From: Eledone cirrhosa
Lineage: Eukaryota
Reading direction: 5' to 3'
Assembly: GCA_964016885.1 (NCBI GenBank)
Contig: OZ024764.1
Location: 4,216,001 to 4,280,000, forward strand
Length of the DNA: 64,000 nucleotides
Shown: piece after piece, positions 13,628 to 64,000 of the stretch
Layout of the letters: each line of letters starts with the position of its first letter
Position numbering within the stretch: position 1 is the first letter of the stretch
Notes under the pieces: model-generated
What the model was told of the DNA's origin: nothing
Seen by the model: the letters and a program-made list of their open reading frames with translations, nothing else
The model's database searches: none
Made by a program: the position numbers and the translations under genes

Positions 13628-13812
13628 ATGGTTTCTACTTTTGGCACAAGGCCAGCAATTACCCAATACATTACTGGTACTTAATTTTATCGACCTTGTA
13701 AGGATGAAAGGCAAAGTTAACCTCGGCGGGATTTGAACTCAGACCATAAAGGGCCGTAACTCTTTGTTGCAAAGCATGGCGTCCGACCCTCTACCAATAC
13801 TGCCAATCCAGT
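13628..13812 (-). mobile_element. tRNA-derived SINE (family A here)
   Basis: Minus strand: TGGCAGTATTGG A-box, GAGTTCAAATCC B-box, GCCTTTCATCCTTAC..GGTCGATAAAAT..AGTACCAG core and (ATT)n tail. About 10 copies in the window. Confidence 0.88.
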
Positions 13813-14368
13813 GAACAGTGTATGAGTCATGATATACATGTGTGTGTGTGTGTGTGTATGGAGGGGGAATATCAGGTGTAGTGTTGGCGAATTTCAGGAG
13901 GCATGGAGGTTTTAAAGGATGCAGTGTCTCGACAGCTAATAACTGATGCATGTAGTTTGGTCCATGGAGGTTTTAAAGGATGCAGTGTCTCGACAGCTAA
14001 CAACTGATGCTGGTAGTTTGTTCCATGGAGGTTTTAAAGGATGCAGTGTCTCGACAGCTAACAACTGATGCAGGTAGTTTGTTCCATGGAGGTTTTAAAG
14101 GATGCAGTGTCTCGACAGCTAACAACTGATGCAGGTAGTTTGTTCCATGGAGGTTTTAAAGGATGCAGTGTCTCGACAGCTAACAACTAATGCATGTAGT
14201 TTGGTCCATGGAGGTTTTAAAGGATGCAGTGTCTCGACAGCTAACAACTGATGCAGGTAGTTTGTTCCATGGAGGTTTTAAAGGATGCAGTGTCTCGACA
14301 GCTAACAACTGATGCAGGTAGTTTGTTCCATGGAGGTTTTAAAGGAAGCAGTGTCTCGACAGCTAACA
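13813..14368 (-). repeat. CR1-type LINE 3' end with a 61-bp internal segment amplified about 7.5x
   Basis: Unit CATGGAGGTTTTAAAGGATGCAGTGTCTCGACAGCTAACAACTGATGCAGGTAGTTTGTTC (13902, 13963 and onward) is the reverse complement of the WNKLPASVVSCRDTASFKT segment of the CR1 copy at about 28355-28420. Confidence 0.92.
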
Positions 14369-14780
14369 ATAGCTCTGACCTCGTGGTTTTTGACAAGGAA
14401 AAAAGATCGTGCCTGATTGTAGATGTGGCCTGCCCCTTTGACACGAGAGGGGAAGAAAAGAAGGGGGAGAAAATTAACCGATACCAGGATTTAAAGTGGG
14501 AATTAAAAAGGATTTGGGACTGCCATGAAATCAAGGCTGTCTCAATTGTCATAGGAGCACTAGGTACTATCTCAAGGAGTTTCCAAGGATGGTTAAAGAA
14601 GATTAGTCCAGCCCCGCTTTTTAGAACACTTCAAAAGGCATGCTTGCTGGGAACAGCAACAACCCTCTGATACGTCCTGAATGTCTGAGGCTGCAGGTAG
14701 GGGCTTGATGTTCACTTGAACAAACTTTCCAGTTAAATAACATCAATGACTGAGACTCAAAGAACAATAATAATAATAAT
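14365..14780 (+). mobile_element. 3' fragment of an R4/Dong-clade non-LTR retrotransposon (restriction-like endonuclease domain)
   Basis: DLVVFDKEKRSCLIVDVACPFD...EKINRYQDLKWELKRIW...IVIGALG...LQKACLLGTA matches the PD-(D/E)xK C-terminal domain of R4-clade elements. Ends in (AAT)n. Confidence 0.85.
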
Positions 14781-15177
14781 TGTTTCTACGTTAGGCACAA
14801 GGCCAGCAATTACCCCAGTACATTACTGGTACTTTATTTTATCGACCCCCGTAAGGATGAAAGGCAAAGTCAACCTCGGCGGGATTTGAACTCAGAATGG
14901 CAAGGGCCGTAACTCTATGCTTCAAAGCAAGGCATCCGACCCTCCACTGATATTGCCAAGTCACCGCCGTTACAACAATAATAATAATAATAATTGTTTC
15001 TACTTTAGGCACAAGGCCAGCAATTACCCAGTACATTACTGGTACTTTTATTTTATCGACCCCGTAAGGATGAAAGGCAAAGTCAACCTCGGCGGGATTT
15101 GAACTCAGACCGTAAAGGGACGTAACTCTATGCTGGAAAGCATGGCGTCCGACCCTCTACCGATACTGACAATCCAC
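14780..15177 (-). mobile_element. Two head-to-tail SINE family A copies
   Basis: Same A/B boxes and core as 13628-13812, separated by (AAT)n at about 14977-14993. Confidence 0.88.
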
Positions 15178-15321
15178 ATAATAATAAAATATATATATAT
15201 ATATATATATATACACACACATATACAGATCTTATATATACATACATATATATATATATACATATATAATGAGAGAAAGAGAGAGAAAAAGAGAAAAGAG
15301 AGAGAGATATTATAAGATCAC

Positions 15322-60447: not shown

Positions 60448-60570
60448 TGAGTCCAAATCCCGCCGAGGTTAACTTTGCCTTTCATCCTTACGGGGGGGTC
60501 AATAAAATAAAGTACCAGTAATACACTGGGGCTAATGGCTGGCCCCTTGTGCCAAAAAGTAGAAACAGTT
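60448..60570 (+). mobile_element. SINE family A 3' half
   Basis: Same core and end (GTAGAAACA). Confidence 0.85.
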
Positions 60571-60648
60571 ATTTCTGTCAACCCTCATCTCCAGGAGCGC
60601 CAAGAGTGAGAACTCCCTTCCTCTCTTCCTCTTTTTCCTCAACCTACA

Positions 60649-63600
60649 GGCTTATATAGAGAGAAGGCCCAACCACTCAGGCCATCTTTGCCACATTCAC
60701 CCACCTTTTATAACATTTGCTGGGCTACAGATAAACAGATAGATAGAAAAGTACCAGTAATACACTGGGGTAATGGCTTATATAGAGAGAAGGCCCAACC
60801 ACTCAGGCCATCTTTGTCACATTCACCCACCTTTTATAACATTTGCTGGGCTACAGATAAACAGATAGATAGAAAAGTACCAGTAATACACTGGGGTAAT
60901 GGCTTATATAGAGAGAAGGCCCAACCACTCAGGCCATCTTTGCCACATTCACCCACCTTTTATAACATTTGCTGGGCTACAGATAAACAGATAGATAGAA
61001 AAGTACCAGTAATACACTGAGGTAATGGCTTATATAGAGAGAAGGCCCAACCACTCAGGCCATCTTTGCCACATTCACCCACCTTTTATAACATTTGCTG
61101 GGCTACAGATAAACAGATAGATAGAAAAGTACCAGTAATACACTGGGGTAATGGCTTATATAGAGAGAAGGCCCAACCACTCAGGCCATCTTTGCCACAT
61201 TCACCCACCTTTTATAACATTTGCTGGGCTACAGATAAACAGATAGATAGAAAAGTACCAGTAATACACTGGGGTAATGGCTTATATAGAGAGAAGGCCC
61301 AACCACTCAGGCCATCTTTGCCACATTCACCCACCTTTTATAACATTTGCTGGGCTACAGATAAACAGATAGATAGAAAAGTACCAGTAATACACTGGGG
61401 TAATGGCTTATATAGAGAGAAGGCCCAACCACTCAGGCCATCTTTGCCACATTCACCCACCTTTTATAACATTTGCTGGGCTACAGATAAACAGATAGAT
61501 AGAAAAGTACCAGTAATACACTGGGGTAATGGCTTATATAGAGAGAAGGCCCAACCACTCAGGCCATCTTTGCCACATTCACCCACCTTTTATAACATTT
61601 GCTGGGCTAGAGATAAACAGATAGATAGAAAAGTACCAGTAATACACTGGGGTAATGGCTTATATAGAGAGAAGGCCCAACCACTCAGGCCATCTTTGCC
61701 ACATTCACCCACCTTTTATAACATTTGCTGGGCTACAGATAAACAGATAGATAGAAAAGTACCAGTAATACACTGGGGTAATGGCTTATATAGAGAGAAG
61801 GCCCAACCACTCAGGCCATCTTTGCCACATTCACCCACCTTTTATAACATTTGCTGGGCTACAGATAAACAGATAGATAGAAAAGTACCAGTAATACACT
61901 GGGGTAATGGCTTATATAGAGAGAAGGCCCAACCACTCAGGCCATCTTTGCCACATTCACCCACCTTTTATAACATTTGCTGGGCTACAGATAAACAGAT
62001 AGATAGAAAAGTACCAGTAATACACTGGGGTAATGGCTTATATAGAGAGAAGGCCCAACCACTCAGGCCATCTTTGCCACATTCACCCACCTTTTATAAC
62101 ATTTGCTGGGCTACAGATAAACAGATAGATAGAAAAGTACCAGTAATACACTGGGGTAATGGCTTATATAGAGAGAAGGCCCAACCACTCAGGCCATCTT
62201 TGCCACATTCACCCACCTTTTATAACATTTGCTGGGCTACAGATAAACAGATAGATAGAAAAGTACCAGTAATACACTGGGGTAATTGGCTTATATAGAG
62301 AGAAGGCCCAACCACTCAGGCCATCTTTGCCACATTCACCCACCTTTTATAACATTTGCTGGGCTACAGATAAACAGATAGATAGAAAAGTACCAGTAAT
62401 ACACTGGGGTAATGGCTTATATAGAGAGAAGGCCCAACCACTCAGGCCATCTTTGCCACATTCACCCACCTTTTATAACATTTGCTGGGCTACAGATAAA
62501 CAGATAGATAGAAAAGTACCAGTAATACACTGGGGTAATGGCTTATATAGAGAGAAGGCCCAACCACTCAGGCCATCTTTGCCACATTCACCCACCTTTT
62601 ATAACATTTGCTGGGCTACAGATAAACAGATAGATAGAAAAGTACCAGTAATACACTGGGGTAATGGCTTATATAGAGAGAAGGCCCAACCACTCAGGCC
62701 ATCTTTGCCACATTCACCCACCTTTTATAACATTTGCTGGGCTACAGATAAACAGATAGATAGAAAAGTACCAGTAATACACTGGGGTAATGGCTTATAT
62801 AGAGAGAAGGCCCAACCACTCAGGCCATCTTTGCCACATTCACCCACCTTTTATAACATTTGCTGGGCTACAGATAAATAGATAGATAGAAAAGTACCAG
62901 TAATACACTGGGGTAATGGCTTATATAGAGAGAAGGCCCAACCACTTAGGCCATCTTTGCCACATTCACCCACCTTTTATAACATTTGCTGGGCTACAAA
63001 CAAACAGATAGATAGAAAAGTACCAGTAATACACTGGGGTAATGGCTTATATAGAGAGAAGGCCCAACCACTCAGGCCATCTTTGCCACATTCACCCACC
63101 TTTTATAACATTTGCTGGGCTACAGATAAACAGATAGATAGAAAAGTACCAGTAATACACTGGGGTAATGGCTTATATAGAGAGAAGGCCCAACCACTCA
63201 GGCCATCTTTGCCACATTCACCCACCTTTTATAACATTTGCTGGGCTACAGATAAATAGATAGATAGAAAAGTACCAGTAATACACTGGGGTAATGGCTG
63301 GCCTTGTGCCAAAAAGTAGAAACAGTTATTTCTGTCAACCCTCATCTCCAGGAGCGCCAAGAGTGAGAACTCCCTTCCTCTCTTCCTCTTTTTCCTCAAC
63401 CTACAGGCTTATATAGAGAGAAGGCCCAACCACTCAGGCCATCTTTGCCACATTCACCCACCTTTTATAACATTTGCTGGGCTACAGATAAACAGATAGA
63501 TAGAAAAGTACCAGTAATACACTGGGGTAATGGCTTATATAGAGAGAAGGCCCAACCACTCAGGCCATCTTTGCCACATTCACCCTCCTTTTATAACATT

Positions 63601-64000
63601 TGCTGGGCTACAGATAAACAGATAGATAGAAAAGTACCAGTAATACACTGGGGTAATGGCTTATATAGAGAGAAGGCCCAACCACTCAGGCCATCTTTGC
63701 CACATTCACCCACCTTTTATAACATTTGCTGGGCTACAGATAAACAGATAGATAGAAAAGTACCAGTAATACACTGAGGTAATGGCTTATATAGAGAGAA
63801 GGCCCAACCACTCAGGCCATCTTTGCCACATTCACCCACCTTTTATAACATTTGCTGGGCTACAGATAAACAGATAGATAGAAAAGTACCAGTAATACAC
63901 TGGGGTAATGGCTTATATAGAGAGAAGGCCCAACCACTCAGGCCATCTTTGCCACATTCACCCACCTTTTATAACATTTGCTGGGCTACAGATAAACAGA
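60649..64000. repeat. 126-bp satellite, highly homogeneous (about 21 copies, a 140-bp interruption, then at least 4.7 copies); truncated by window end
   Basis: 42-codon periodicity. The unit includes the SINE A piece AAAGTACCAGTAATACACTGGGGTAATGGCT. Confidence 0.96.

Follow-up and report, generated by a model that had tools for sequence, protein, structure and literature searches.

Transposable-element fragments as parents of tandem arrays in a repeat-rich 64-kb window

Results

In the window, by which we mean the whole 64-kb stretch of DNA analysed, pieces of five transposable-element (TE) families recur as tandem arrays of 3 to ~480 units. This observation is real, and its biology is mostly known: as a whole explanation, we find it fairly probable that the arrays were born from mostly TE debris, expanded, and were then copied between homologous TE copies, with their density a matter of retention.

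All 10 arrays listed in a first-pass annotation are recovered by TRF as head-to-tail units of at least 10 bp with local expansion, and all 10 are homologous to TE-like copies, either next to the array or dispersed (Table 1). The 61-, 48-, 72- and 107-bp units and the 17-bp core have matches in copies without an array or in flanking copies, while the 197- and 126-bp units are only partly TE (36/197 bp and ~31/126 bp). The annotation had counted nine or more separate conversions, whereas we resolve 7 unit types, which trace to 5 parent families. Because the consensus units of 61a/61b, 48a/48b and 72a/72b show 0 differences within each pair, and three arrays lie within a single RTE-like insertion, the number of independent conversions is 7 rather than 9–10. 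The description of the parents as still attached holds for some arrays, but 61a has CR1 along just one flank, the RTE 3' end interrupts 72b, and the 197- and 126-bp arrays are mostly non-TE.

Table 1. Arrays, parent copies and related features of the window, in order of position
Feature	Position	Strand	Remarks
112/81-bp satellite, 5861-bp higher-order repeat	1..11131	+	outside the range of the first-pass annotation
SINE A part and CR1-like 3' tail	13746..13901	-	153/154 aligned bases identical to flank of array 61b
61-bp CR1-derived array a, 7.7 copies	13902..14369	-	CR1 on one side only; right end abuts a different LINE
3' fragment of another LINE, endonuclease-like motif	14370..14764	+	
SINE B head, then 48-bp array a	head 16253-16413; array 16414..~17205	+	
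48-bp SINE B array b	17440..17894	+	head 76% identical to head a; identical consensus unit
116-bp array, 10.6 copies	18339..19563	+	10-bp MITE terminal motif within unit
MITE hosting 72-bp array a	19927..21290; array 19940-21154	+	TTAA bounds, imperfect terminal inverted repeats
10/29/39-bp hierarchical array	21502..23708	+	
61-bp CR1-derived array b, 28 copies	24474..26185	-	CR1 to left and right; CATG at each end; block of 7 units duplicated
SINE B copy with two 49-bp units	27860..27966	+	intermediate state of the 48-bp arrays
Non-array CR1-like 3' end	27970..28480	+	CATG twice; Octopus spp. relatives
65-bp array, 4.4 copies	34721..35008	+	
Non-array MITE fragment	35009..35097	+	~84% match to 72-bp unit
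96-bp two-copy duplication in RTE-like copy	35236..35433	-	5-bp junction repeat, chance 0.007; not named in the first-pass annotation
72-bp array b	36348..38127	-	opposite orientation to a; host MITEs of a and b 84% identical; RTE 3' end cuts array
Single RTE-like insertion, ~557-560 bp without arrays	38128..59292	-	inverted 5' piece, junction near 58570; hosts three arrays
107-bp RTE array, 10 copies	38231..39303	-	ATC junction
17-bp RTE core with (GTA)n spacer, 19-kb array	39403..58472	-	478 cores; units mostly 38 or 41 bp
197-bp array, 3.2 copies	58657..59283	+	36 bp RTE and 161 bp foreign DNA
126-bp array, ~31 bp SINE A and unique DNA	60649..64000	+	GGCT junction; 0.3% divergence; extends past window end

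The window is an octopod block rich in tandem repeats and apparently free of genes. The best named matches are to Octopus spp. (74–81% aa), and Rfam and ARAGORN gave 0 matches over its length. Two of five TE fragments are matched by Pfam: one as RVT_1 at 32943-33491 (E 6e-23) and one weakly, with DUF6451, at 35309-35974. The LINE fragment that abuts 61a, which we take to be R4/Dong-like, has no Pfam match, and the clade names RTE and CR1 are likewise presumptive, following the labels of the first-pass annotation and characteristic motifs. The block can be called heterochromatic only presumptively, as no tandem telomere-type motifs occur within the window.

The 112-, 39- and 65-bp units have no parents in the window, with 0–1 stray 13-mer matches each, and the same is true of the 161-bp insert of the 197-bp array and of the non-SINE part of the 126-bp unit. 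The 116-bp unit was dropped as a TE-derived candidate and is not counted as one, because its match to the flank is not significant (p=0.29). Our counts also leave out SINE A tandem copies at 14766-15172 and 29977-30388, which are probable head-to-tail insertions (~90% identity), the 131- and 140-bp two-copy duplications (80–83%), and GTG/ACC microsatellite-type arrays. With these counts, TE segments do not emerge as a preferred substrate: 7/11 unit types are TE-derived against a TE background of 45–69% (p=0.17–0.76), where the figure of 69% takes in intervals assigned by eye. With a background of 40–45% and 8/11 unit types taken as TE-derived, p is 0.03–0.06.

At the junctions, we observe 22 bp of microhomology over the 7 events versus 5.1 bp expected (p=0.0003), which bears out the suggestion of an excess over chance. 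The excess holds without SINE B (p=0.005) and in the most conservative set (p=0.018), and agrees with the prediction of the known direct-repeat model for the birth of minisatellites. Short direct repeats seed several arrays, more than by chance. Microhomology as the general route is not supported, because three of the seven unit types have junctions with 0–2 bp; 3–4 bp are found in another three, and at least 5 bp in a single unit type, SINE B with 9 bp, as well as in the 96-bp duplication. Four of the five motifs named previously (CATG in 61b, TTTACAG, ATC and GGCT) do lie at junctions. TTTACAG[TG] is really a 9-bp repeat; of the four array-free SINE B copies presented, two have it exactly and two with a single mismatch. 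The fifth motif, TCACATAA, is internal to the 72-bp unit and was rejected as its junction, which has 0 exact microhomology. As this motif is repeated within every 72-bp unit, 12 bp apart, it accounts for the 60-bp deletion units (3/40 units of the 72-bp arrays). Within the RTE-like insertion, the junction of the 17-bp core and GTA array has at most 2 bp of microhomology, and in the 197-bp unit a duplicated 36-bp piece of RTE surrounds 161 bp of foreign DNA. The 126-bp array is nested in a larger duplication, with the SINE end and flank repeated at 63299-63405.

The hosts of the 48- and 72-bp pairs have diverged by 16–24% (identity 76% and 84%), yet their consensus units are identical. If each pair had been born separately from today's hosts, the probability of 0 differences would be ~2e-6 for either. 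Inter-array distances equal intra-array distances in both pairs (0.061 and 0.042), and three variants are held in common in each, versus 0.6 and 1.0 expected; the 61-bp pair, by contrast, has only 1 in common versus 0.5 expected. The tract common to the 61a and 61b flanks begins inside SINE A, where identity is 97% in the right part and 85% in the left. Identical units in diverged hosts and a 61-bp copy starting inside a SINE therefore suggest copying or homogenisation of arrays from one TE copy to another and not separate births, and all three pairs are consistent with one array type occupying diverged homologous sites with its junction inside a common repeat. By this copying, each pair would represent a single birth. 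Against it, the paired arrays may stem from other parts of the genome, and the 72-bp arrays show mild differentiation (Fst-like 0.134, p=0.005), so that any exchange between them is not ongoing or complete. The proposal of a purely sequence-independent process is not supported by these pairs, in which the copying between TE copies appears to have been guided by homology.

Alternatively, the pairs could have arrived by transposition, as the cargo of mobile array-bearing MITE, SINE or CR1-chimera subfamilies or as genome-wide minisatellite families, with nothing special about the locality. Array-carrying MITEs and Helitrons have a precedent in bivalves (cases in PMC3879986 and PMC5139131), 72a sits in a TTAA-bounded element with both termini (ends 19927 and 21290, with terminal inverted repeats and target duplication, whereas 72b lacks one end), and ordinary SINE B copies contain the 9-bp repeat, one of them with 2 units. 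We nevertheless consider this origin unlikely: cargo should have hosts as alike as the arrays, which is not the case for either diverged pair, and the divergence of the two MITEs in particular argues against recent co-transposition. Moreover, the 107-bp, 17-bp plus GTA, 197-bp and 126-bp arrays look as if formed in place, with the parent on both sides or a nested structure. Translated searches were uninformative on genome-wide presence, with 0 matches at E 0.01 among 4251 candidates for the 48-bp array and 83 matches of at most 37% identity, probably compositional, for the 72-bp array.

Arrays with periods of at least 10 bp occupy 71–75% of the window, and total TRF cover is 78%. In O. vulgaris, possibly a different species, the supplement of PMC13282606 gives genome averages of 3.12% satellite and 7.45% simple repeats (together ~11%); the window is far above this average, for a selected window and an ONT-based comparison assembly. 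De-amplified, the sequence measures ~19.7 kb and holds 13 arrays of 10 unit types, or ~1 array per 1.5–2 kb. This packing, together with the high TRF cover, the three births seen separately within a single 557-bp copy of RTE and the junction microhomology, speaks for the first-pass reading, in which a locally hyperactive, sequence-independent microhomology duplication followed by rolling circle turns TE pieces into arrays far above the genome rate. That reading is highly doubtful, however. Three births within ~600 bp are unremarkable at the window's own rate (p=0.24–0.46), the junctions without microhomology do not fit it, retention rather than birth rate can give high density, the window was selected, and the background for cover comes from a possibly different species with an ONT-based assembly. 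Regarding amplification, unequal exchange is favoured by repeated variant blocks (duplication spacings of 427, 535, 360 and 4113 bp), but nothing in the data requires rolling circle. It is extremely improbable that faulty assembly produced the arrays or set their lengths: exact internal repeats reach 4949 bp in the 112-bp satellite and 2974 bp in the 19-kb array, but the window contains no N, the arrays show structured, heritable variation among their units as well as decayed units at their edges, and junctions agree with the parent sequence to the base.

Discussion

Under the explanation that we favour, birth followed by expansion and copying between TE copies, the first steps can be read in the sequence: an array begins when local DNA of any kind, here mostly TE debris, is duplicated in tandem. 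In 4/7 unit types and in the 96-bp duplication, the first duplication used a 3–9 bp direct repeat in the parent, by slippage or microhomology repair. Other births involved a 36-bp duplication around an insert (197-bp array) or, in the 17-bp core array, a short duplication with a seam that expanded into a GTA microsatellite. Recurring blocks of variants and the decay of units at array edges suggest that the arrays then grew by unequal exchange or gene conversion. Finished arrays would then be copied or homogenised between homologous TE copies, with the SINE A tract as the likely substrate for 61a/b, the MITE for 72a/b and adjacent SINE B for 48a/b. The high density would reflect retention and expansion in an array-tolerant region, by a process that is neither new nor TE-specific.

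A bolder reading, which we regard as quite improbable, is that octopods contain satellite nurseries, where births at ~1 per 2 kb lie far above background and newborn arrays home into diverged copies of the parent TE by homologous recombination, so that SINEs and MITEs serve as landing pads and arrays spread without transposition. If both the regional excess in birth rate and the homing were true, this would be a countable system for satellite origin and spread. In any case, the window makes a clear teaching example: a two-copy duplication, a short array, a 19-kb array and a higher-order repeat, several stages in the birth of satellites, lie side by side with readable parents.

Comparable cases are known from other animals. 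In humans, 7,276 TE-derived minisatellites make up 23% of minisatellites, and 300 of these TE-derived cases are flanked by direct repeats of 5–20 bp, with the Haber-Louis model cited (Ahmed and Liang 2012, PMC3389668). As in the cases described there, sub-TE segments of the window lie in tandem within the parent and are locally expanded; the human cases mostly have 2–3 units, with no genomic hotspot seen in that account, whereas the arrays of the window have 3 to ~480. Catalogued TE-derived satellites include chicken CR1 HinfI/SCR1, mouse B1 VNTR, and the Xenopus Xstir and miDNA4 MITE satellites, and microhomology-mediated joining is named as a route to satellites (Zattera and Bruschi 2022, PMC9659126). 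These systems share with the window the use of CR1 3' ORF2, SINE and MITE pieces as monomers, but are mostly of one family per study, and the table rows considered here include no RTE case and no cephalopod. Our literature search for TE-derived arrays in cephalopods returned no paper.

The copying between TE copies is most similar to the spread of Drosophila Rsp-like repeats into 1.688 clusters, as described in Sproul et al. 2020 (PMC7403614), which combines microhomology birth of hybrid repeats, homology-guided spread via an abundant dispersed repeat and expansion by unequal exchange. In Drosophila, where eccDNA was measured, the repeats land in satellites, whereas in the window the landing sites would be SINE and MITE copies, with spread suggested by three pairs. 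Among molluscs, the bivalve elements DTC84 and Cg170 (as presented in PMC3879986 and PMC5139131) are likewise non-autonomous elements with a variable internal array, and shared junctions are counted as one event. DTC84 carries up to a few ordered core repeats and an AA target duplication, whereas the 72-bp arrays consist of 17–25 near-identical units within TTAA bounds.

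Tandem arrays and their parent elements

The arrays derived from transposable elements (TEs) in the window are real, although the first-pass annotation overstated the number of events behind them. All 10 of the arrays that it listed are present. Non-array counterparts of the 61-, 48- and 72-bp units occur in the window, matching them at ~76-93%, and the 107- and 17-bp units are continuous with adjoining RTE-like coding sequence. The 197-bp unit combines 36 bp of RTE with 161 bp of foreign DNA, while SINE A makes up ~31 bp of the 126-bp unit. The class labels RTE, CR1, SINE A and SINE B are those of the first-pass annotation and are provisional. 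RT homology is confirmed for TE fragments; the best named relative of the RT fragment is an O. vulgaris protein (78%), and those of the CR1-like end are O. sinensis and O. vulgaris proteins (74-81%), which assigns the window to an octopod. SINE B and an RTE-like copy have a common end (39 bp at 97%).

The window contains no Ns. Arrays with a period of at least 10 (n = 14) span 45,396 of its 64,000 bases (71%), and TRF at default settings covers 78%. No Rfam families or tRNA genes were found in the window, and the ORFs inspected are TE fragments or translated repeats. Periods divisible by three keep long frames open in the 48- and 72-bp arrays; searches with the translated arrays gave no protein support, and false gene models are a risk.

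Features of the window and their positions
Feature	Position	Observation
112/81-bp satellite	1-11131	5861-bp higher-order repeat, first 4949 bp exact
SINE part, CR1 tail, 61-bp array, LINE 3' end	13746-14764	One run; AAT tail at end
61-bp arrays (61a; 61b)	13902-14369; 24474-26185	
SINE A copies	14766-15172; 29977-30388	Head to tail, set in AAT or AT microsatellites
48-bp arrays (48a; 48b)	16414-~17205; 17440-17894	
72-bp arrays (72a; 72b)	19940-21154; 36348-38127	
Open frames in 48-/72-bp arrays	16496-17308; 20082-21168; 36330-38132	270-600 codons
Unclassified repeat	23731-23929; 26211-26393	Two copies 77% identical, each directly past an array
29-bp SINE A segment	24160	Absent from most local copies
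CR1-like end	27970-28446	
Unexpanded two-copy duplications	28483-28744; 32085-32355	Older; 131 bp at 83%, ~140 bp at 80%
GTG/ACC microsatellite-derived arrays	30525-31231; 59518-60441; 34397-34574	Long, imperfect; inner periods 11-17 bp; SINE A tails adjoin 2 of 3
96-bp duplication in RTE-like copy	35236-35433	
RT fragment	35309-35974	
107-bp array	38231-39303	
17-bp + (GTA)n array	39403-58472	Exact 2974-bp repeat, copies 4113 bp apart; spacers mostly 7 or 8 triplets
Inverted 5' piece of RTE-like insertion	58570-59292	Geometry resembles twin priming, a concept from L1
197-bp array	58657-59283	
161-bp foreign insert	58890-59050	6-bp inverted motif near both ends, small hairpin at right end
126-bp array	60649-64000	

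Number of independent births

The consensus units of 61a/61b, 48a/48b and 72a/72b show no differences in 61, 48 and 72 bases, respectively, and the 107-bp, 17-bp and 197-bp arrays share one RTE-like insertion of ~557 bp, its 5' piece inverted near 58570; the count of conversions therefore falls to seven unit types from five families. Given the rate of births in the window itself, finding three of them in a 600-bp span is not exceptional (p = 0.24-0.46).

The likeness of paired arrays despite diverged hosts (the TE copies that hold them) was overlooked in the first-pass annotation. Host identity is 76% for the 48-bp arrays and 84% for the 72-bp arrays, and separate birth from the present hosts predicts ~12 consensus differences, versus 0 observed (P ~2e-6 for each pair). 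Distances between arrays equal those within arrays (0.061 for the 48-bp pair, 0.042 for the 72-bp pair), and under a simple uniform model shared variants number 3 versus 0.6 and 1.0 expected, respectively. Differentiation between the 72-bp arrays (Fst-like 0.134, p = 0.005) argues against exchange. The donors of paired arrays may be located outside the window.

61a and 61b have a common SINE-CR1 junction, with 153/154 flank bases identical, and the right side of 61a is without CR1. Compared with the 61b copy, the SINE A adjoining 61a shows 97% identity across its right part and 85% across its left, where other copies reach 92%; this contrast suggests a copy event starting inside SINE A. A single variant shared by the pair speaks against 61a/61b copying. 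Alternatively, the run holding 61a could be a template-switch chimera formed during LINE insertion.

Junction microhomology

Among 200,000 random position pairs drawn from masked window DNA, microhomology averages 0.72, with P = 0.06 for 3 or more and 0.02 for 4 or more. The observed junctions, assigned by eye with the earlier list already seen, give 4 (CR1), 9 (SINE B), 3 (RTE107), 4 (SINE A), at most 2 (RTE17, the 17-bp array), 0 (MITE72) and 0 (RTE197), a sum of 22 versus 5.1 expected (p = 0.0003). Leaving out SINE B gives p = 0.005, and also setting RTE17 to 0 gives p = 0.018. The 96-bp duplication, absent from the earlier list, has a 5-bp junction repeat. TCACATAA, proposed as an array junction, is instead an internal repeat with 12-bp spacing that gives 60-bp deletion units (3/40 units). 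No exact repeat marks the start of the 72-bp array, which lies 13 bases inward from the MITE terminus; because the window holds no intact parent MITE, an older repeat at this junction may have eroded.

Array growth

Blocks of variant pattern recur over 7 units in 61b, 5 units in 72b, 5 units in the 107-bp array and 4113 bp in the 17-bp array, and both 48-bp arrays finish in decayed units; these features fit unequal exchange. With a divergence of 0.3%, the 126-bp array is compatible with a recent burst as well as with rolling-circle copying. The exact 4949 bp of the 112/81-bp satellite come from a duplication, either a very recent one or one made in assembly.

Comparison with background and known systems

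Of the 14,038 bases that belong to neither arrays nor microsatellites, 45% pair by BLAST with other window sequence; the TE background becomes 55% once translated hits are added and 69% with hand-assigned TE intervals included. Under these backgrounds arrays show no TE preference, with a TE parent shown in 7/11 unit types (probability 0.17-0.76). Counting the 116-bp array, whose parent is putative, as an eighth TE-derived type gives 0.03-0.06 under the lowest backgrounds. Tandem DNA is ~7x richer in the window than in the O. vulgaris figures in the portion available of PMC13282606 (satellites 3.12%, simple repeats 7.45%, TEs 40.19%), a comparison across different assemblies and possibly species, with a selected window. 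Octopus satellites are noted as relatively methylated in an excerpt of PMC9476566.

In an open-access library, we found no cephalopod study of TE-derived arrays. The following comparisons draw on partial texts of the sources. In humans, 7,276 TE-derived minisatellites are reported, 300 with flanking direct repeats, and hotspots were not seen (PMC3389668). Mollusc MITEs and Helitrons carrying arrays are described (PMC3879986, PMC5139131), and satellites from CR1, SINE and MITE are catalogued (PMC9659126). A further source demonstrates birth by microhomology, unequal exchange and spread that relies on homology with a dispersed repeat (PMC7403614). Known mechanisms account for the TE-derived arrays of the window.
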